Below are positions 1,102-20,000 of a stretch of 20,000 nucleotides of DNA, piece after piece. This stretch comes from an uncultured virus (IMG/VR IMGVR_UViG_3300013132_004380). Its lineage: Duplodnaviria; Heunggongvirae; Uroviricota; Caudoviricetes. The first letter of the stretch is position 1. Every line of letters begins with the position of its first letter. The notes under the pieces are model-generated. The model made no database searches. It had not been told where the DNA came from and worked only from the letters and a program-made list of their open reading frames with translations. The position numbers and the translations under genes were made by a program. The DNA lies in IMG/VR virus record IMGVR_UViG_3300013132_004380. One strand, given 5' to 3'.

Positions 1102-1153
1102 GCTAGTCACGATATTTGCCGTATCCACTAGCTCTAACGATTATTAAGGAATC
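1102..1153 (+). promoter_or_regulatory. structured leader of the homing endonuclease gene, with an SD-containing hairpin
   Basis: GCTAGT 1102-1107 pairs with ACTAGC 1127-1132, with inner GATA/TATC. GATT 1139-1142 and AATC 1150-1153 enclose TAAGG ahead of ATG 1161. Confidence 0.45.
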
Positions 1154-1160
1154 ATCAGCA

Positions 1161-1997
1161 ATGTATTTACAAAACAAATATACTAATTGGTATAATAACA
1201 TTATTGCTAATGCAATGTCAAGGATATTACCAAAAGAAACATATACCGAAAAACATCATATTATACCAAGAAGTTTGGGCGGTGATAATTCAGACGAAAA
1301 TCTGATTAGATTGACCGCCCGGGAACATTTTTTATGTCATTTGCTATTACCAAAAATGCTCAGTGGTGTTGCTAAAAGAAATATGACTTTTGCTATTTGG
1401 TCCATGTTAAACAGGGACCATTCTAGACAACGATCTAGACACAAAGTTAATTCACACACATATAGCCGTCTCAAAATTCAAATCGCTCAAGCTTCTTCTG
1501 AATTACACAAAGGTAAGTCTAAATCAGAAGAAACTAAAAGGAAAATTTCTGAAAAGGCAAAAGGACGAGTTTCACCTAATAAAGGAAAGCCAATGACTGC
1601 CGAACAACGAGAAAAACTTTCAATTGCACATAAAGGCAAAACTATTTCTCCCATCGTTGTTGCAAAGATATTAGAATCACGAAAACATTACACACACTCA
1701 GAAGAAACAAAACAAAAAATAGGCAGAGCACACAAAGGAAAAACTCAAATAGTCTCCGAAGAAACCAAACAAAAAATTTCTAATTCGCTGAAAGGTAGAC
1801 CAAATCATAATAAAGGAAAACCTGCCTACAACTTGGGAATTTCTCATACAGACGAAACTATAAAAAAGTTGCAGTTAGCAGCGCAAAATAGAGAAAGACT
1901 TACTTGTATTCATTGCGGTAAATCTGCACCTAAATGTAGCTTTACACGATGGCACGGTGATAATTGCAAACACAAATATTCAACTCTGCCACTCTAA
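1161..1997 (+). CDS. HNH homing endonuclease with NUMOD3 repeats (free-standing, selfish element)
   Basis: HNH motif EKHHIIPRSLGG...NLIRLTAREHFLCHLLL, several NUMOD3-like repeats (KSEETKRKIS, HSEETKQKIG, VSEETKQKIS) and a C-terminal CIHCGK...RWHGDNC. ATG 1161 follows AAGGA. It is the only credible plus-strand gene. Confidence 0.9.
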   Translation: MYLQNKYTNWYNNIIANAMSRILPKETYTEKHHIIPRSLGGDNSDENLIRLTAREHFLCHLLLPKMLSGVAKRNMTFAIWSMLNRDHSRQRSRHKVNSHTYSRLKIQIAQASSELHKGKSKSEETKRKISEKAKGRVSPNKGKPMTAEQREKLSIAHKGKTISPIVVAKILESRKHYTHSEETKQKIGRAHKGKTQIVSEETKQKISNSLKGRPNHNKGKPAYNLGISHTDETIKKLQLAAQNRERLTCIHCGKSAPKCSFTRWHGDNCKHKYSTLPL

Positions 1998-4463: not shown

Positions 4464-4492
4464 ATTATACATTGTTCTTTTCACAAAGTCAA
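4464..4492 (-). promoter_or_regulatory. sigma70-type promoter, probably giving a leaderless mRNA
   Basis: TTGACT(4492-4487)-17 nt-TATAAT(4469-4464) with extended TG. Only 7 nt separate it from ATG 4456 and there is no SD. Confidence 0.7.
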
Positions 4493-5010
4493 AAAAGTTC
4501 ATTCATTATTTTAATAGCGTAATCGAATGCAATGTCGGCTTCAGCGGCCATGCTATCGTCGCACTTGGCTCTTATAAATGCTATCAAATTGTCTCTGTCA
4601 TCAAATTGTAATGCCAAATTGTTGCCAGGAGTTAACTTTCTTATCATTTGCCCACCGTATAAATCTCCCATATGCCAAACATACATATGGGCAATAATTT
4701 TGACCGGTTTCTTTTCTAATGTTTGCAAATAATTATAGTAATCAAGTGTCGATGATTTAAAATTGTAAGGGCTGCCTTTGCTTAATTCTATAAAATCTTG
4801 ATACAATAAAAAAGCTCTGTAAATGCAAGGTTGTTGATTGAATCCACAGTATGCCCCAGCAAGTCCTTCTAGCAGTTTGTAGAACAACCATTTTTGGTAA
4901 ATGAAATCTGTCCACACTTCAGTCGGTAATTGTTTTTGTATCACTGCCTGCATGAACCTTGTTTGTTCTGCTTCGCGATGTTTGTTTAATGTTAGTTCTT
5001 TTAGGCTCAT
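4489..5010 (-). CDS. heme oxygenase (biliverdin-producing type)
   Basis: LKELTLNKHREAE (proximal His) and the distal-helix motif AHMYVWHMGDLYGGQMI. Confidence 0.88.
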   Translation of the reverse strand: MSLKELTLNKHREAEQTRFMQAVIQKQLPTEVWTDFIYQKWLFYKLLEGLAGAYCGFNQQPCIYRAFLLYQDFIELSKGSPYNFKSSTLDYYNYLQTLEKKPVKIIAHMYVWHMGDLYGGQMIRKLTPGNNLALQFDDRDNLIAFIRAKCDDSMAAEADIAFDYAIKIMNELF

Positions 5011-8562: not shown

Positions 8563-9045
8563 TTAAACATTTCTTCTAATATTTAAATAACTAGGCTGCT
8601 TATTATACAAAAACTCTTCCCAAATGTCTGTAAGTTCCTGATCTGTTTCAGGTTTATAGATTCTGATGTTAGGAAATACCGACAAAGCACAGACATCATC
8701 TTCTGCCCAATGGCTGAATCCCAAATGGCCATAATCTCTGTCTCTGCCTGCTCCTACCAATTTGACCGGAGCCAGTTCTTCATTCAAATAATTTCTAAGC
8801 CATTCGTAAGGTCTAAAAATAACAAATGGTGTAATACTGTAGCAAATAGGAATTCTATCATTATGACTGAGGCCCACTGCTGCTCCTACCATAAGTTGTT
8901 CGCTTGCTCCCATGTTCAAACTACGGTTAGGAAAAGTTTTTCTAACCTGATCCAAGACACCAAATCCCAAATCCCCGGTCAGAGTCCAAATACGTGGATC
9001 CGTGCACATTGAATCAAACAATAATTCGCTAAACAATTTTCTCAT
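8563..9045 (-). CDS. transketolase-like, pyrimidine-binding subunit
   Basis: LTGDLGFG, NMGASEQLMVGAAVGL, RPYEWLRN and GFSHWAEDD. It lacks the C-terminal third domain. Confidence 0.88.
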   Translation of the reverse strand: MRKLFSELLFDSMCTDPRIWTLTGDLGFGVLDQVRKTFPNRSLNMGASEQLMVGAAVGLSHNDRIPICYSITPFVIFRPYEWLRNYLNEELAPVKLVGAGRDRDYGHLGFSHWAEDDVCALSVFPNIRIYKPETDQELTDIWEEFLYNKQPSYLNIRRNV

Positions 9046-9650
9046 AGTTTTTCCAAATCGTCAGGCTTCAAAACATAGTAATGAGTTAACACTCCCTCAG
9101 CAAACTTCCATTTCGGAGGTTCGGTATTTCTTATATTAATTGACGGCAAAAATGCAGTCAATCTTTTATTCATATAATCTCTGTCGATCATGTCATATGC
9201 AATCATACCATTTACATTTGCATAAACTTTAAGATTAGTTAATTTGGCCTCATGAATGAATCTTAAACTTTCCCAAATACTGCCTTCATTGGCTTCTCCA
9301 TCACTAATAAGACAGTAAACGTCCCGTGAAGTGTCTGCTAATGCATAACCAACTGCAACCGTTAGACCCTGTCCTAAACTTCCTGTAGAACAATAGATTC
9401 CATCACCGACTGACCTATGAGGATGTACTCCATGTTTATGAAACAGTTTTTCTGCATTCTTAAGTTGATACTTTTCAAGTATTACATAAAGAGCAAGTGC
9501 AGCATGACCTGAACTTAAAATAAAAATATCATCAGGACGTTTAGTTTTATAAATTTCTTCAATTATGTTTACTGCATTAAGATTAGAACTTAAATGCCCG
9601 ATTTTTTCTTTGTAGCTAATATCTATAATTCTTTTTTCAACATCATTCAT
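9042..9650 (-). CDS. transketolase-like, TPP-binding subunit
   Basis: GHLSS, FILSSGHAALALY, STGSLGQGL and the TPP motif SDGEANEGSIWE...N. Confidence 0.9.
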   Translation of the reverse strand: MNDVEKRIIDISYKEKIGHLSSNLNAVNIIEEIYKTKRPDDIFILSSGHAALALYVILEKYQLKNAEKLFHKHGVHPHRSVGDGIYCSTGSLGQGLTVAVGYALADTSRDVYCLISDGEANEGSIWESLRFIHEAKLTNLKVYANVNGMIAYDMIDRDYMNKRLTAFLPSINIRNTEPPKWKFAEGVLTHYYVLKPDDLEKL

Positions 9651-10458
9651 AATATGCTGTCTCTAAAAATTTTTGTATACCTTGTTCCAACGTAAACTTC
9701 GGCGACCAACCATATCGTACATTAATTCTATCATAATTACACTTCCAAACCGGTGGTGTAACAAATTTATCAATTAGTTCAACGTTACCCGATTGTCCAG
9801 TCAGTTTACGAAATATTTCTAATACTTGCAAATTAGTATATTCTATTCCCGAACTTACATTAAGAATTTCACCAGGTATGCGTTGTTTACTTTGGAGTAC
9901 AAGATCTACTGCCGCAACAAAATCGTCGATGTAACAAAAATCATGAACCCCATTTACTAATTGCATTGCACGATTTAATTTAAAACTGCGCCATAAGTTA
10001 GGAAATAATCTATGTGGTTGTTCACCCGGACCGTATGGACTATATGGACGTAAAATAGTTACATCCGAACCATACATGTTAGCATAGGTTTGACACAATA
10101 TTGTAGCAATACCTTTTGTGCCTGCATACATGTTTACTGGGTCAATTGCATCTGTTTCGGTCGTAGCCCTCGAATACTTATTACCGTATTCGCTACTAGA
10201 CCCAATTTGTATCAATGCAGAGTAAGTATGGCCTTTGATATAGTCTAAACATGATTTTACTAATTCAACATTAGATATCCACATGTCATCTGCATTATAT
10301 ATTTCAGCACCACAATTAATTATTACGTCAGGTACAAAGTGCTTTAGTTGAGCAGATATATCTTCTGTTCGTTTAAAAGAATGGATGTCATGTTCCTGGT
10401 AAAACTTTCGTAAATTACTGCCAATGAAACCACTAGCACCAGTCAAAAATATTTTCAT
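9643..10458 (-). CDS. NAD-dependent epimerase/reductase (extended SDR, NDP-sugar)
   Basis: TGASGFIG, GSSSEYG, YAGTK (YxxxK), RPYSPYGP and HDFCYIDD. Confidence 0.9.
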   Translation of the reverse strand: MKIFLTGASGFIGSNLRKFYQEHDIHSFKRTEDISAQLKHFVPDVIINCGAEIYNADDMWISNVELVKSCLDYIKGHTYSALIQIGSSSEYGNKYSRATTETDAIDPVNMYAGTKGIATILCQTYANMYGSDVTILRPYSPYGPGEQPHRLFPNLWRSFKLNRAMQLVNGVHDFCYIDDFVAAVDLVLQSKQRIPGEILNVSSGIEYTNLQVLEIFRKLTGQSGNVELIDKFVTPPVWKCNYDRINVRYGWSPKFTLEQGIQKFLETAYYE

Positions 10459-11774
10459 TGAAACAAACTTAGAAAATTCTCAACTTTATAACCAATATAG
10501 TCTATCTGTTCTGCAGTAATCACAGGACTAGTACCATGAAAAAAAGTATTAGTCATCGCAAAAGTTGCGTTTGGATATTTAGTTTTTGCTAGTTTAGGAT
10601 CCATAAGATGACTGTAAGCGGGCTGCAGCATAATGTTGCCGGCAAAATATGGCCTAGTTTGAATTAGATTCTCTTCGAGATAGTCCACAATATCATTTCT
10701 TGTAAATGGCGCACCTTGCCTAATCGTCAAAGGAAATGCAAACCAACTAGGATCTGATTTGGCTTGTGGTCTAGGCAAATGAAAAAATTCTTCATATTTT
10801 TCATAAACTTTAAAAAGCAAATTGTAATTGCGTTTACGGAGAGCATGAATCCTTGGCAGTTTTTCCAACTGTCGCAACCCCATCGCGCACTGAAGTTCGA
10901 TCGGTTTTAAATTATAACCAATTTCGTCGTAAACATATTTGTGATCAAAAATTTCGTCGGGCATGGTTTCAATCCAATTGCTGAATCGTTTACCACAGGT
11001 TCCACATTTAAGTTTATTTGCTTCAGGCCCAACACAATAACATCCTCGACCCCACTCGCGAAAACTACGCAGAATTACATCGGTGGTAGGATCATCTGTA
11101 GCTACATACCCACCTTCTCCCATGGTCATATGATGTGCTGGATAAAAACTACAACTAGCCATTAGGCCAAAAGATCCTAATGGCTGTCCATCGTAAGTAC
11201 TTCCTAAAGCATCGCAACAATCCTCTAATAGAACTAAATTATATTTTTTCACTAATTCCATGACATGATCCATGGCTGGGGGATTCCCCAAAACGTGAGC
11301 AAATGTAATTACCCTAATGTCGGGATTTAGTTTTAAAATTTGTTCAGCTTGATTGGTATTTAGATTAAGTGTATCTAGTTCAATGTCGACAAATACCGGT
11401 TGAAAACCAACTTGCAATGTGGGGTTAAGAGTAGTAGGAAACCCTGCAATAGGCATTAACACTTTAGTGCCTTTAGGTAAGTTATAGCCTCTTTTACTGG
11501 TCAGTGCGCTCATCATTAATAGATTACTACTACTACCACTATTAGTAACAATGCCTTTAGATTTTCCAAAATATTTAGGGAAAGTTCTTTCGAATTCTAA
11601 GCCAGCTGATCCCATAGCTAGCCATCCTTTGAGCAGACTTTCTACTCCTGCTACATATTCTTCTTCGTCATAGTATGCTCCTGCATAATTGACAAAATCT
11701 TGTCCAGCTTCCCAGGTTTTATTGTTTTGTTTTTGTTTAATATATTCGCGTACTTGATTTAAAATTTGTTCCAT
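10455..11774 (-). CDS. rfbH: RfbH/DdhC-type NDP-4-keto-6-deoxyglucose 3-dehydratase (PMP and Fe-S dependent; DegT family)
   Basis: NSGSSSNL, EDCCDALGS, SFYPAHHMTMGEGG (His in place of the Schiff-base Lys), Cys-rich WGRGCYC...CGTCGKRF and DHKYVYDEIGYNLK. Confidence 0.9.
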   Translation of the reverse strand: MEQILNQVREYIKQKQNNKTWEAGQDFVNYAGAYYDEEEYVAGVESLLKGWLAMGSAGLEFERTFPKYFGKSKGIVTNSGSSSNLLMMSALTSKRGYNLPKGTKVLMPIAGFPTTLNPTLQVGFQPVFVDIELDTLNLNTNQAEQILKLNPDIRVITFAHVLGNPPAMDHVMELVKKYNLVLLEDCCDALGSTYDGQPLGSFGLMASCSFYPAHHMTMGEGGYVATDDPTTDVILRSFREWGRGCYCVGPEANKLKCGTCGKRFSNWIETMPDEIFDHKYVYDEIGYNLKPIELQCAMGLRQLEKLPRIHALRKRNYNLLFKVYEKYEEFFHLPRPQAKSDPSWFAFPLTIRQGAPFTRNDIVDYLEENLIQTRPYFAGNIMLQPAYSHLMDPKLAKTKYPNATFAMTNTFFHGTSPVITAEQIDYIGYKVENFLSLFQ

Positions 11775-11777
11775 GCA

Positions 11778-12725
11778 TCACCAAATAAAGTTTTCTTTAT
11801 AGTATTGTACAATCTTTGCTAACTCTGTGTCAAAGTCTGCATAAGGTTTCCAACCTAACTTACGTAGTTTTGAATCATCTACGCTGTATCGAACATCTTG
11901 ACCGGCTCTTACCATGTGTTCGATGTAATCGTCAATTGGGCCCGTTAACCCCATCAAACTAACAATTTTTTTAACCACTTCAATGTTTTGTGTTTCGTAG
12001 TTACCGCTGACATTGAATATTTCATTTGTAACTCCGGAATTAATAATTTGTAATACCGCTTTGGCTGTGTCATTGGCGTTTAACCAGGTACGTACAGGTG
12101 TACCTTGATTATGTAAATCCACTTTTCTGCCTACACTTAAATACTTTACACTTTTTGGTATAAGTTTTTCAACATACTGGCCAATTCCGTAATTATTTGT
12201 AGGTCTTACAATTATGTAGGGCATATTATAAGTTCTGCCCCAACTTGTAACCAAATGATCTGCTGCAGCTTTAGTTGCACTGTAAGGATTACTAGGTTTT
12301 AGTAAATCTTCCTCAGTGTGAGATCCTGCTTCAATATCACCATAAACTTCATCTGTGCTAAAATGTAAAAACACAGGTCGTTTGTATTTCTTTTTGTTTA
12401 GCATTTTAAGTAAATGATGGACTCCATTAATATTACTATGCACAAAAGCATCGCTATCTTCGATGCTATTGTCTACATGAGTTTCTGCTGCAATATTAAT
12501 GATGTAATCGCAATCATACAATCTTTCTAGATTATTAATGTCTGCTTTAATGAAATTAAATTGATCTGGATATCTCATCCCCCAACTATCAATCCACCCT
12601 TCATTACTAGCATATGTGCATTTATCAACTCCGATCACATACCAGCCTTTGCTGAGACATAATTCAGTTACATGACTGCCGATAAACCCCAAACAACCGG
12701 TAATATAAACAATTTTTTTACTCAT
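11778..12725 (-). CDS. rfbB: dTDP-glucose 4,6-dehydratase-like (RmlB/RfbB)
   Basis: TGCLGFIG, DKCTYA, AAETHVDNSI, STDEVYGD, PYSATKAAAD and EKLIP. Confidence 0.88.
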   Translation of the reverse strand: MSKKIVYITGCLGFIGSHVTELCLSKGWYVIGVDKCTYASNEGWIDSWGMRYPDQFNFIKADINNLERLYDCDYIINIAAETHVDNSIEDSDAFVHSNINGVHHLLKMLNKKKYKRPVFLHFSTDEVYGDIEAGSHTEEDLLKPSNPYSATKAAADHLVTSWGRTYNMPYIIVRPTNNYGIGQYVEKLIPKSVKYLSVGRKVDLHNQGTPVRTWLNANDTAKAVLQIINSGVTNEIFNVSGNYETQNIEVVKKIVSLMGLTGPIDDYIEHMVRAGQDVRYSVDDSKLRKLGWKPYADFDTELAKIVQYYKENFIW

Positions 12726-12726
12726 A

Positions 12727-13491
12727 TTATTTTAGTTCTGTTAACAGCGGTACCCCTAAAGCTTCATTAACTTGTCGCATACATTCTAACTTAGTGGGAG
12801 CATGGCGACTACTATGCCAATGAACTACTTGTGCATCTTGGTAACTACATTGATTCCATTCGTCTTGTACTTCGATCGATGCCCAATTTGGAATCCATTG
12901 TGCTTGATAAAATAGTTCAGGTCTGTGTGCATCTGACCAAGCCAAATCTTGCATCCAAAACATTGTATTGTGGACGATTTGTTGATTATTATAACTATTC
13001 ATTCCTTCAGTTGTGTCCCAAGCAGCTCTCATTTCTCTTTCTTTTTTCCAAAGTTCTTCGGACATTGTATGAGGATAATACTGTAAATCATTGTTGAATA
13101 AATTTTCAAATTTAGCATTATATTGGTTGGGTTCATCCCACTTTTTAGGATCAGTCCAATTAAACAATCTAAATTCAGGAAATTCACCAAAAATTTTAGT
13201 AGGTTTTACAAATTGTACATCTGGCCCAACCCACAGAATATTACAAGGCTCTCGGTGCCACATTTCATATACTAAATCGTTGTTTCTAGGCATTGCAAAA
13301 TTGATGTGGTCCACAGGATCATCAAATAATACATATTCCCACTCACCTTCCAAAAATTGTCGAGCACTACTTAAACTGTGCAAACAAAGTTGACGATAAA
13401 TTTCGTAAATATCGCCTTCATCCTTAGTGTCTTTCCAAACCCATTTTGTGCTTTTGATTCTACGGTGAGCACACACCACATAATTTTTCAT
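12727..13491 (-). CDS. putative GT-A-fold glycosyltransferase-like protein
   Basis: ILWVGPDVQF sits where the DxD motif would be and VVHWH resembles the GT8 C-terminal His motif. It heads the sugar operon. This is inference. Confidence 0.5.
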   Translation of the reverse strand: MKNYVVCAHRRIKSTKWVWKDTKDEGDIYEIYRQLCLHSLSSARQFLEGEWEYVLFDDPVDHINFAMPRNNDLVYEMWHREPCNILWVGPDVQFVKPTKIFGEFPEFRLFNWTDPKKWDEPNQYNAKFENLFNNDLQYYPHTMSEELWKKEREMRAAWDTTEGMNSYNNQQIVHNTMFWMQDLAWSDAHRPELFYQAQWIPNWASIEVQDEWNQCSYQDAQVVHWHSSRHAPTKLECMRQVNEALGVPLLTELK

Positions 13492-13496
13492 TTGTA

Positions 13497-13937
13497 TTAG
13501 ATGTTTAAATATTCGTAATTTACTGTGTCATCATTAATTCTTAGAATCACTGCACCATTTCGAATATGAAATTTTCTGGCCATTTCAGTTACAGGACTCA
13601 AGGTAACAAATCTTTTGATTTCGGGCCTATTAGATCTTATAAAGTGCATACCTTCTCTAATTAATCTTTGACCATAACCAGACTGATAGCTCCATATTGT
13701 ATAAAAAATTGCTGAAGTGGGCATGTTGCTATGTTCTTCAAGAAGTTGTTGTTCATTGATTGGAATATTTTCACAGAACTTTGCACAAACAATTGCACCG
13801 ACTTTGTCTCGATCTTTTAAAACTAAAACGTGCGACCCATGGTCGAACCGTTTAGAGATAGGTATATGAGGCCTTACTGGATCGTCTTTAAGATAAATGG
13901 CTAAAGGATCGTTGATGTCTTTGATAAGGTATAGCAT
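13497..13937 (-). CDS. GNAT-like phage protein
   Basis: FYTIWSYQSGYGQRL (acyl-CoA binding loop-like) and FVTLSP..EMARKFHIRNGA. Confidence 0.55.
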   Translation of the reverse strand: MLYLIKDINDPLAIYLKDDPVRPHIPISKRFDHGSHVLVLKDRDKVGAIVCAKFCENIPINEQQLLEEHSNMPTSAIFYTIWSYQSGYGQRLIREGMHFIRSNRPEIKRFVTLSPVTEMARKFHIRNGAVILRINDDTVNYEYLNI

Positions 13938-13962
13938 AATAGAAACACAATTACTACCTTAT

Positions 13963-14928
13963 TTATTTTGCCCACATCGATCGGTCAATATTCCCTAATC
14001 CTGCGTATCTATTAGACTGTAAAGGATGGAGCAAGTTGTAAGGATTTTGTCTTTTAAAACTGCTAAATTTAATTCGATCTAAAATTTTATTTACTCTAGG
14101 TAAATCAATATCTGGAACTTGTAGGTATTCCAGAACAGTTTGTCTATTAGATACATCTTGGGTTTGGCATAGTGTTAGTAGCGCAATATCAAACTCTAAG
14201 TAACTAAATCCAAATTGATCTTCGTCACCTTCGCTAATTCCTAAACCATCGGTAGGAGTAGCAAAAACTGTGCTTTGCGGAACACCGTAAATTTCTGCCA
14301 GCTTAGGTACTTCCCAACTTTTTATCAAACTTTGAATTGGGGCTAAATCGCCAACGTCACCGTGTAAGGTCCAAAACCCAGCAGCTAATTCACTGAAATT
14401 ATCTGTACTAGCTACCAATCCTTTATTAAGACTAGCAATGTTGTACAATGTAATCATTCTACTTCTTACACGAAGATTGCCACGTCTAATAGAACTATCG
14501 TTGTCATCTATATTAGGATCGTAATCGCGAACACTTGCTAATAAATCTTCATATTGATCAGTAAGATCAATATGCATGTGATCCAATTTTAATGTCTGAC
14601 AGGCTTCAATTCCTCTATCAGTTTCTTCTTGTCGTTGATGAATAGGCATAGTAACACCTATTACATTCCACCCTGCAGATTTAAATAATGCAGAAGTTAA
14701 TGCACTATCTACTCCACCACTCATACCGATTATAGCAGTATTGATATTATAAGTTTGAGAATAAGTGGCCAATCCCCGAACTAATTTTTGACCAACGTCT
14801 TCTAATCCATTTAAGTCAGGATAAACACCCAAAGTAATTAATTCATCTAATTTAGAATCAAACCAAGGAGTTAAAGGCTGCATTTTTTCTTGACGACTAT
14901 ATTGTAAAATTTCTTGTTTGATAGACAT
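13963..14928 (-). CDS. nadE: NH3-dependent NAD+ synthetase
   Basis: GMSGGVDSA PP-loop, GNLRVRSRM, STDNFSE, GFWTLHGD, PTDGL and DEDQFGFSY. Confidence 0.9.
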   Translation of the reverse strand: MSIKQEILQYSRQEKMQPLTPWFDSKLDELITLGVYPDLNGLEDVGQKLVRGLATYSQTYNINTAIIGMSGGVDSALTSALFKSAGWNVIGVTMPIHQRQEETDRGIEACQTLKLDHMHIDLTDQYEDLLASVRDYDPNIDDNDSSIRRGNLRVRSRMITLYNIASLNKGLVASTDNFSELAAGFWTLHGDVGDLAPIQSLIKSWEVPKLAEIYGVPQSTVFATPTDGLGISEGDEDQFGFSYLEFDIALLTLCQTQDVSNRQTVLEYLQVPDIDLPRVNKILDRIKFSSFKRQNPYNLLHPLQSNRYAGLGNIDRSMWAK

Positions 14929-17565: not shown

Positions 17566-18309
17566 CTACATCAACAAGACTCTGTTTATAATTGGCTTGA
17601 TGTTCTCAAGATTTTTATATTTTAAAACATTGGCGGTCATTGAATTTATGCTTTGTCTGATGTTTGCCCCTAACTGCGGCCAAACATCAACCAACGGTAC
17701 AACATCAACTTTTACTAAAAAAACACTGGATATATTATCCCCCAATGGCGCAGCAGTTTGTGTCTCTACTCTTAGATAAAGATCGTTTATGCTAGTAGGA
17801 ACAACATCTGACTTATATGCAGGATGATTACTTAAATTTGAATTTGTAGTCAAAGTCCACACTTGTCGTCTAAACGGACCTAAATTATTTTGGGCCATTG
17901 TTTCTGCCAAGCGTGGGCTAGCAGCAACCAATTTGTCGCTGTCTGCGACTGGTCGATGTATATCTGCTAGTGTCATTCCAATACGTTGACTGGGAATCCA
18001 ACTACTAGGAAAACAAAAACAAATAGAGGCCAAAACACCTTTGTGCATAATAGCAATATCTTCTTCTATTTGCAGTGCTAAGTCTTTTATTGAATCGGTT
18101 TCGCTTAGTTGTAAAAAGTTAGCAGTTTTCTTAACTAACTGATTAACTGTACTTTCATATGTATCAGCACACAAATCAGATTCTAGTTTGCTTAACTCTA
18201 GAACTTTTTGCTTAATATACTCTAAGTTAGGTGTGGTATTTAACAAACAGCCATCGAATCTTTTCATTCTTGGCTGTGTGGAATATGGAAATTGAATTTC
18301 AACTAACAT
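17566..18309 (-). CDS. DUF3445 / heme-dependent oxidative N-demethylase alpha-subunit-like protein
   Basis: QIEEDIAIM, CFCFPSSWIPSQRIGMTLADIHRPV, FRRQVWTL and LYLRVETQT match the family pattern as I recall it. Confidence 0.75.
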   Translation of the reverse strand: MLVEIQFPYSTQPRMKRFDGCLLNTTPNLEYIKQKVLELSKLESDLCADTYESTVNQLVKKTANFLQLSETDSIKDLALQIEEDIAIMHKGVLASICFCFPSSWIPSQRIGMTLADIHRPVADSDKLVAASPRLAETMAQNNLGPFRRQVWTLTTNSNLSNHPAYKSDVVPTSINDLYLRVETQTAAPLGDNISSVFLVKVDVVPLVDVWPQLGANIRQSINSMTANVLKYKNLENIKPIINRVLLM

Positions 18310-19796: not shown

Positions 19797-19871
19797 TGGT
19801 GGGGACAGGGGGATTCAAACCCCCAACTTACCGGTTAAAAGCCGGTTACTCTATCATTGAGTTATGCCCCC
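19797..19871 (-). tRNA. tRNA-Lys(UUU)
   Basis: GGGGGCA/TGTCCCC-A-CCA, ACTC/GAGT D-stem, ACCGG-CTTTTAA-CCGGT and GGGGG-TTTGAAT-CCCCC. Confidence 0.9.
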
Positions 19872-19877
19872 GATAAT

Positions 19878-19969
19878 TGGTGCCTCTGGTAGGATTCGAA
19901 CCTACGACCTGCCGCTTATCTGGCGCTACGGGGTATAAATCCGCTGCTCTTCCACTGAGCTACAGAGGC
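19878..19969 (-). tRNA. tRNA-Ile(UAU) with a 17-nt extra arm
   Basis: GCCTCTG/CAGAGGC-A-CCA, GCTC-AGTGGAA-GAGC, GCGGA-TTTATAC-CCCGT, then AGCGCCAGATAAGCGGC-AGGTC, then GTAGG-TTCGAAT-CCTAC. Confidence 0.85.
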
Positions 19970-19978
19970 AATAAACTT

Positions 19979-20000
19979 TGGCGGAAGAGGAGGGACTCGA
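19979..20000 (-). tRNA. 3' end of a further tRNA (truncated by the window; possibly Ser)
   Basis: TCGAGT-CCCTC-CTCTTCC-G-CCA. The anticodon is outside the window, so Ser is a guess from G73 and the acceptor stem. Confidence 0.7.

Follow-up and report, generated by a model that had tools for sequence, protein, structure and literature searches.

The Double-Arm tRNA Gene and Its Genomic Setting

The window analysed here, i.e., the whole stretch of 20,000 nt, has a G+C content of 37% and looks from its sequence like part of the genome of a large T4-like phage. The 28 ORFs scanned were found to include a UvsW-type helicase, an HNH/NUMOD3 endonuclease, nucleotide-sugar enzymes and an NAD synthase. 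The HNH/NUMOD3 endonuclease gene (1116–1997, plus strand) is located on the opposite strand and adjoins the UvsW-like helicase gene, and the nucleotide-sugar cluster (8563–14928, minus strand) contains two epimerase/dehydratases, a DegT aminotransferase and a transketolase in two ORFs, in addition to the NAD synthase. Besides, heme oxygenase and heme-dependent oxidative N-demethylase-like genes were observed at 4489–5010 and 17566–18309 (minus strand). AUA accounts for 98 of the 411 Ile codons in 26 window ORFs.

A tRNA-Ile gene with two anticodon-like arms is located close to the end of the window, and 6 nt downstream of it the tRNA cluster continues with an ordinary tRNA-Lys(UUU) gene (Table 1). 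The 3′ end of another tRNA, consisting of a T arm, an acceptor strand, a G discriminator and CCA, is found at 19979–20000 (minus strand), and since this tRNA is cut by the window edge, the cluster extends further upstream.

Table 1. Features of the double-arm tRNA gene and the adjacent tRNA gene in the window.
Feature	Position	Strand	Evidence or remark
Double-arm tRNA-Ile gene, 92 nt, CCA encoded	19878..19969	-	ARAGORN tRNA-Ile(TAT); Rfam RF00005, 63.3 bits
Acceptor stem 5′ strand, 7 bp	19963..19969	-	Partner 19882-19888; sequence and fold
D arm, class I type, 4-bp stem	19946..19960	-	Sequence and fold
First anticodon arm	19928..19944	-	Loop 19939-19933 = U32-U33-UAU-A37-C38
UAU anticodon, presumed AUA decoder	19937-19935	-	Sequence, ARAGORN
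17-nt insert between first arm and variable loop	19911..19927	-	Sequence, Rfam
Second arm CGC-CAGAUAA-GCG, presumed IleRS recognition arm	19913..19925	-	Family conservation
Second-arm loop, with GAU and A at position 33	19922-19916 (GAU 19920-19918)	-	Sequence
Class I variable loop AGGUC, 5 nt, intact	19906..19910	-	Sequence
T arm, 5-bp stem	19889..19905	-	Sequence and fold
Discriminator A73	19881	-	Sequence
Encoded CCA	19878-19880	-	Sequence
Ordinary tRNA-Lys(UUU) gene	19797..19871	-	ARAGORN, Rfam

The first-pass annotation had described a 92-nt tRNA with intact acceptor, D and T arms and a UAU anticodon; ARAGORN and Rfam concurred, and all of its coordinates stand. The cloverleaf features by which a tRNA is recognized with RF00005 (acceptor, D, anticodon and T arms, discriminator and CCA) are all present. 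The UAU loop conforms to Y32-U33-NNN-R37, and in the UAU stem G27-U43 is a wobble pair and A31-C39 a mismatch. The RF00005 alignment located the insert in the variable region, which is 22 nt in total, the insert being placed between positions 43 and 44; when the 17 nt are removed, a canonical 75-nt tRNA is left. That this insert precedes AGGUC and folds as a second hairpin, as proposed previously, was borne out by the sequence, and the comparisons below show that the hairpin is real and not due to chance. The gene scored 85.8 bits with the family model R1, the training set of which included the window sequence. Among the family members, A73 was found in 215 of 224, CCA in 195 of 224 and a 4-pair D stem in 173 of the 194 scored. 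The variable-loop 5-mer AGGUC was also present in 89 of 113 bacterial tRNA-Ile(GAU).

Two reservations expressed earlier about the second arm concern its short stem and its register. Its stem is short not only in the window gene, most stems in the family having 3–4 pairs. The alternative GCC/GGC pairing, which gives an 8-nt loop, is favoured by 2.0 kcal/mol in the window sequence according to the energy model (-31.8 vs -29.8), yet it can be formed in only 39 of the 224 unique family members, a set that was filtered for the 7-nt register.

Homologs and the Link Between the UAU and GAU Arms

Full-length relatives were detected by BLAST in two phages, Acinetobacter phage vB_AbaS_qsb1 and Stenotrophomonas phage DLP_6, as well as in ten Xanthomonas plasmid records; the match to an Alteromonas plasmid was partial. 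The loop CAGAU(A/U)A was present in all six phage and plasmid relatives that were fetched, on stems that differ. The double-arm family is mis-annotated. The copies in qsb1 and DLP_6 are annotated merely as tRNA-Ile, the Xanthomonas and Alteromonas plasmid feature tables checked contain no RNA genes, and genes of the subtype II described below are called Ile(GAT) or Glu by ARAGORN, reported as undetermined, or missed.

Patterns demanding the loop detected at least 119 loci in viral contigs and at least 120 in genomes, and these were used for sampling only and not for GAU conservation. With a pattern in which the variable region was left free, at least 120 viral and at least 120 genomic matches were obtained, and among the matches listed 117 viral and 109 genomic sequences were tRNA-like (3 and 11 were discarded). 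The length of the variable region was bimodal among the matches listed, with 46 short (4–6 nt) and 71 long (21–27 nt) regions on the viral side and 100 short and 9 long regions on the genomic side. Overall, single-arm genes have a variable region of 4–7 nt, compared to 21–27 nt in the double-arm family. The family is common on the viral side, where at least 71 of the 117 tRNA(UAU) matches listed are long-armed.

A GAY-centred 7-nt loop was found in 74 of the 75 unique long-armed tRNA(UAU) genes among the matches listed (72 GAU and 2 GAC), the lone exception being located on a giant-virus contig and intron-like in appearance. For the same 75 genes from the matches listed, the best 7-nt hairpin, when chosen blind to sequence, was GAU-centred in 66, and a GAU loop on at least three pairs was present in 70, compared to 210 of 14,800 shuffles (1.4%). 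In the converse test, in which the first anticodon was left free, UAU was found in 114 of 119 matches (108 directly and 6 with a one-base offset on inspection); the remaining matches were four sequences that are not tRNAs and one Lys-like oddity. The window gene is a genuine member of this widespread double-arm tRNA(UAU) family. Identity between tRNA bodies within the family (median 60%) is close to that with other tRNA classes (mean 55–58%) and does not separate one origin from several.

Small shares of a homologous locus were contained in 24 RNA runs. No joint skipping the second arm was detected in contigs of four RNA runs, which are possibly DNA-derived.

Variant forms were also observed. 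A natural GAC replaces GAU in the second loop of L203:285-374 (plus strand) and L339:286-374 (minus strand), and the double-arm gene L488:286-377 (minus strand) has G37 in its UAU loop. L370:771-872 and L444:2990-3090 (both minus strand) have a third hairpin, of small size and with a GNRA loop, between the UAU and GAU arms. Shortened, non-standard D arms were found in L372, L376, L381, L396, L441, L368 and related Acidobacteria arrays; such double-arm genes occur in Alphaproteobacteria and Acidobacteria, and several were missed by ARAGORN.

Conservation and Placement of the Second Arm

The consensus of the second loop in the 74 genes from the matches listed consists of Y32 (73), A33 (69), GAU and purine 38 (72), and position 37 is U in 41, A in 25, G in 5 and C in 3. 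The A at position 33, regarded as a defect in the first-pass annotation, is instead a conserved feature of the family. Compared with a decoding arm, the second arm shows U33 in 1/74 and a purine at position 37 in 30/74 of the matches listed, and has no general 5-bp stem.

The inner three pairs of the second arm are kept in 74, 72, and 73 of 74 genes from the matches listed, with several pair types. In alignment A1 of 86 diverse members, double-sided changes at these pairs numbered 29, 43, and 8; A1 was prefiltered for at least three second-arm pairs, so that its 100% pairing is by construction and only the variety of pair types is informative. RNAalifold predicted a five-arm fold from A1, which had been filtered for pairing. 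The behaviour of homologs had been set beforehand as the refutation test of the two-arm reading, and in the homologs the insert was kept, GAU was kept and the stem showed compensatory changes. That the loop stays invariant and the stem covaries in tRNA bodies with a median identity of 60% points to selection on the second arm.

Two further candidate rules were rejected. C29-G41 was considered as an IleRS identity element and is present in 70/74 second arms from the matches listed, but true bacterial tRNA-Ile(GAU) contain it in only 56/113, and the first arms did not differ from single-arm genes in this respect (20/74 vs 47/135, p = 0.28, matches listed). A 33-37 pair closing a GAU triloop does not hold as a rule, since A-U was found in 122 but A-A in 91 of 224 members.

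The distance from the end of the GAU loop to the T stem is 9 nt in 66/74 and 10 nt in 8/74 genes from the matches listed, compared to 10 nt in all 113 unique bacterial tRNA-Ile(GAU), and the linker 5′ of the GAU arm ranges from 4 to 17 nt. Thus, the UAU arm has a canonical position with respect to the D arm, and the GAU arm a near-canonical one with respect to the T arm. The second arm has a 7-nt loop and is followed by 4–7 unpaired nt in 223/224 members, whereas Leu, Ser and Tyr tRNAs have 0–2 unpaired nt after the arm in 127/146 cases and arm loops of mostly 4 nt.

Linkers of 12–13 nt were found in 15 of the 224 unique genes, 14 of which constitute subtype II (L401 does not fit). In these 14 genes the 3′ strand of the D stem is repeated ahead of a 5-bp GAU arm, and the repeated strand covaries with the D-stem 5′ strand and pairs with it at 4/4 positions in 10 genes and at 3/4 positions in 4. 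Two alternative cloverleafs are possible in subtype II, the two registers being within 1 kcal/mol of each other in 10/14 genes and both lying 1.5–9 kcal/mol above the predicted minimum fold. These registers may be taken as the strongest sign of selection for GAU in the anticodon position. The window gene belongs to the main subtype and is without the D-strand repeat. In the main subtype the second arm has only 3–4 pairs, is 1 nt short and lacks a second D strand, and an arm swap there would thus be an extrapolation from subtype II.

Host IleRS and tilS

From the loop-pattern loci detected in genomes, numbering at least 120, 30 carrier genomes were picked for taxonomic spread, and 30 + 30 genomes with single-arm tRNA-Ile(UAU) were taken from the unconstrained genomic matches listed for comparison. 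The zinc-domain residue of IleRS was Trp in 26 of the 29 readable carriers (one sequence was truncated). The three carriers that misfit this pattern had Arg, Tyr, and no zinc motif, respectively. Among the first 30 single-arm genomes, Trp was found in 0/19 readable sequences (Arg in 2, no zinc motif in 17); in the unreadable ones the C-terminus was outside the locus (8) or no hit was obtained (3). tilS was detected over the cut-off in 30/30 carriers vs 6/30 and 1/30 single-arm genomes. However, 23 of the first 30 single-arm genomes are of at most 1.2 Mb and are CPR or CPR-sized. The Fisher p-values are tiny but overstated, because the single-arm genomes are mostly CPR or CPR-sized and many are incomplete, and the correlation with host IleRS is confounded by lineage. 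The IleRS/tilS pattern of the Mycoplasma mobile type (Arg/Lys at the W905 position and loss of tilS) was not found in the genomes of the relatives.

The previous suggestion of decoding without TilS was only partly sustained. A bypass of lysidine is retained, but since tilS is present in 30/30 bacterial carriers, the double-arm tRNA would not replace a missing enzyme. Neither ileS nor tilS was found over the cut-off in 25 double-arm and 5 single-arm virus records, 14 of the 28 IMG/VR records searched being at least 90% complete.

Single-arm tRNA-Ile(UAU) was observed to be common in CPR-sized genomes without a tilS match (L247-L366; genomes G031-G060 and G089-G118), with C38 in 63/95 of the matches listed. 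Several of the single-arm MAGs are labelled Gammaproteobacteria although they are near 1 Mb.

Neighbourhood of the Bacterial Copies

The bacterial copies either belong to tRNA arrays, in which a normal Ile(GAU) gene is often adjacent, or stand alone, and some lone copies are located near transposase, integrase or plasmid genes. An Ile(GAT) call by ARAGORN was also made in 12/16 of the larger arrays listed, of which that in L444 may be the double-arm gene itself. Among 68 proteins neighbouring lone copies, no recurring toxin or nuclease was found.

A 160–190 aa protein annotated as a 3′-5′ exoribonuclease and weakly similar to RNase AS/Rv2179c is encoded near 9/29 lone copies, within about 3 kb and in both subtypes, and is absent at 20/29 lone loci. 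Examples are L004:3122-3640, L007:1303-1854, L419:2323-2874, and L404:4958-6000, in addition to five more loci. This RNase AS-like protein may be a processing partner or part of a shared mobile module.

Proposed Function and Alternative Explanations

In known isoleucine tRNAs the same loop serves IleRS identity and codon reading, and the bacterial solutions to the AUA/AUG problem are lysidine or an altered IleRS. The double-arm tRNA may instead divide the two jobs of the anticodon between two arms of one tRNA carried by mobile DNA. Probably, as judged from the comparative sequence data, AUA decoding is the task of the UAU arm, and the GAU arm serves as a handle for IleRS. No lysidine would be needed for AUA to be read by the UAU arm, which has a ribosome-type loop and its normal place after the D stem. 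The GAU arm, as far ahead of the T stem as an anticodon arm normally is, would be presented to the host IleRS, and as this enzyme is expected to read G34 and to charge U34 poorly, the GAU arm would supply G34-A35-U36. If the gene is expressed, charging with Ile would then depend on contact between IleRS and the GAU loop, and A33, often together with U37, would bar this loop from acting on the ribosome. The arms would likely be swapped: during charging it is the GAU arm that would stack under the D stem, and during decoding the UAU arm. We rate it a little short of even that this is a natural bistable tRNA with two anticodon arms, the GAU fold of which is offered to an unmodified host IleRS and the UAU fold to the ribosome, with lysidine-independent AUA reading by phages, plasmids and tRNA arrays as the outcome. 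The earlier proposal that the extra arm supplies IleRS identity while the UAU arm decodes has thereby gained comparative support from the loop placement, the alternative cloverleaf of subtype II and the host IleRS type.

As far as the accessible text of the papers cited goes, the charging of a UAU tRNA by E. coli IleRS reaches 1.1% of that of the native lysidine tRNA and is rescued by W905R, a change in the zinc domain (PMC3575796). Most carriers have an IleRS of the Trp type, for which UAU is a very poor substrate in E. coli, and the host correlation counts for the GAU arm as a handle. S. aureus IleRS is described as reading G34 via Trp890/Arg888 in the zinc domain, with no base contact from its anticodon-binding domain to U33 and with C32 and U33 partly exposed (PMC11685878), so that A33 need not block IleRS. 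A precedent for an anticodon-like arm that can help charging exists in an engineered pseudo-anticodon arm, which counts for the handle; that its effect was modest and depended on a synthetase to which a further domain had been fused counts against it (the accessible text of PMC7590224).

Other published data weigh against recognition of the second loop. t6A37 is reported to be important for charging by E. coli IleRS (PMC3575796), and the second loop has U37, which cannot carry t6A, in 41/74 and A37 in only 25/74 of the matches listed. According to the accessible part of a preprint, U33 contacts U36 in the S. aureus IleRS complex (10.64898/2026.02.03.703510), a contact that A33 would change. 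For the window gene the swap is weakened by its main-subtype arm and by a lowest-energy fold in another register. Finally, unmodified UAU has been described to misread AUG on E. coli ribosomes (PMC3575796), and such misreading is a cost that the proposed function leaves unexplained.

It is unlikely that the GAU arm acts as a decoy, or as a site to which a tRNA-Ile-directed host defence nuclease or toxin binds, and so protects the UAU arm or the tRNA pool. Such a role would suit a family found on phages, plasmids and tRNA arrays, anticodon nucleases are known from the accessible text of PMC13191261 as an antiviral defence, and an A33/U37 loop might resist cleavage. However, a decoy could function without any link to UAU, which was found in 114/119 matches, and would require neither the canonical distance to the T stem nor a second D-stem register; nor did a nuclease or toxin recur among the 68 proteins around lone copies.

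Recruitment by the GAU arm of another host factor that recognizes tRNA-Ile(GAU), i.e., a modifying or processing enzyme, with indirect aid to charging or AUA/AUG discrimination, is considered quite unlikely. The conservation of A33 (69/74) and of a C-G third pair (70/74; both among the matches listed) beyond known IleRS needs argues for it, true tRNA-Ile(GAU) having C29-G41 in only 56/113. The RNase AS-like gene speaks for such a factor by its presence near 9/29 lone copies and against it by its absence at the other 20. IleRS is the protein known, from the accessible literature, to read G34-A35-U36, and the host correlation tracks the wobble residue of IleRS.

A two-headed decoder, either arm of which enters the ribosome so that one tRNA serves AUA in addition to AUU and AUC, appears very unlikely. 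Nearly all decoding tRNAs have U33 and a purine at position 37, but in the second loop these were found in only 1/74 and 30/74 of the matches listed, respectively, and the larger arrays listed have an Ile(GAT) call in 12/16 cases (with the reservation made above for L444). These data outweigh that subtype II can place its 5-bp GAU arm canonically and that ARAGORN reads some of these genes as Ile(GAT).

It is highly improbable that the insert is intron-like and removable, as had also been suggested in the first-pass annotation, or a neutral duplication scar. The canonical 75-nt remainder would fit either, and subtype II resembles a tandem duplication of the D strand and the anticodon arm, but the invariant loop and covarying stem across divergent bodies indicate selection, the only Rfam match over the insert is the tRNA model, with no intron family match, and the insert is located between positions 43 and 44 instead of in the anticodon loop and has no group I intron fold.

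Charging of a class II-like tRNA by LeuRS or SerRS, with AUA read as Leu or Ser as for the nematode nev-tRNA-Ile(UAU), is scarcely credible although A73 is compatible with Leu identity and counts for it. According to the accessible text, nev-tRNA-Ile(UAU) with its V arm takes Leu in vitro (PMC4300185), but the unpaired stretch after the second arm (4–7 nt in 223/224, vs 0–2 nt in 127/146 Leu/Ser/Tyr tRNAs), the 4-bp D stem and the intact class I variable loop stand against it, and GAU conservation would be left unexplained.

Comparison with Known Systems

By their defining features, the window gene does not fall within the M. mobile type, the class II/nev-tRNA geometry or the allo-tRNA subclasses; the comparisons below refer to the accessible text of the papers cited. 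The single-arm tRNA-Ile2(UAU) of M. mobile shares UAU, a class I body, A73 and presumed lysidine-free AUA reading with the double-arm family, but its charging is solved in the enzyme (Trp to Arg) in the absence of tilS (PMC3575796), whereas the double-arm family has a second GAU arm, mostly Trp-type IleRS and tilS in all 30 genomes tested. Besides, the variable region is 4–5 nt in the M. mobile type and 22 nt in the window gene. In the engineered V-arm tRNA-His, recognition by a synthetase is likewise aided by an anticodon-like hairpin located in the variable region (Mukai 2020, PMC7590224). This tRNA is synthetic, with a long class II arm, a HisRS fused to an extra anticodon-binding domain and a modest effect, whereas the double-arm family is natural, and no IleRS was found in the 25 virus records tested.

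The nematode nev-tRNA-Ile(UAU) also combines UAU with an extra arm thought to set identity, but it is eukaryotic and Leu-charged with a Leu-type class II arm, and the accessible text mentions no conserved GAU loop (PMC4300185). Allo-tRNAs, too, are bacterial tRNAs of non-canonical form, and UAU is common among their anticodons (Mukai 2017, PMC5389517; PMC7609411). They have 8/4 or 9/3 acceptor/T stems and are mainly charged with Ala or Ser (PMC5389517, PMC7609411), compared to 7/5 acceptor/T stems in the window gene and alignment A1. The E. coli thrS operator is likewise a natural RNA in which two anticodon-like hairpins are presented to a synthetase, but it is an mRNA leader for translational control that has no acceptor arm and is neither charged nor decoding (PMC9976931).

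A description of the GAU arm was not found in the literature searched, with most subscription papers outside the search and the supplements of PMC5389517 possibly listing such genes, and the accessible text of the PhiM1 papers (PMC5377504, PMC6115819) mentions just “a tRNA-Ile”. The double-arm tRNA would be a new structural variant of tRNA, and a new mechanism if charging depends on the second loop. If the UAU arm does decode AUA and the GAU arm is the handle for IleRS, mobile DNA would own a third solution to the AUA/AUG problem, based on RNA alone, and charging identity would be naturally uncoupled from decoding. Genetic-code engineering could then draw on the idea of a portable identity arm, and the uncoupling would also bear on the reasons why phages carry tRNAs.

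Long variable arms were also observed in phage tRNAs other than those for Leu, Ser and Tyr, i.e., in L003:2963-3051, L221, and L067 (Asn), L230, L238, and L044 (Thr), L154 (Met), L091 (Cys), L043 (Trp), and L053 (Gly, Glu, and Pro).
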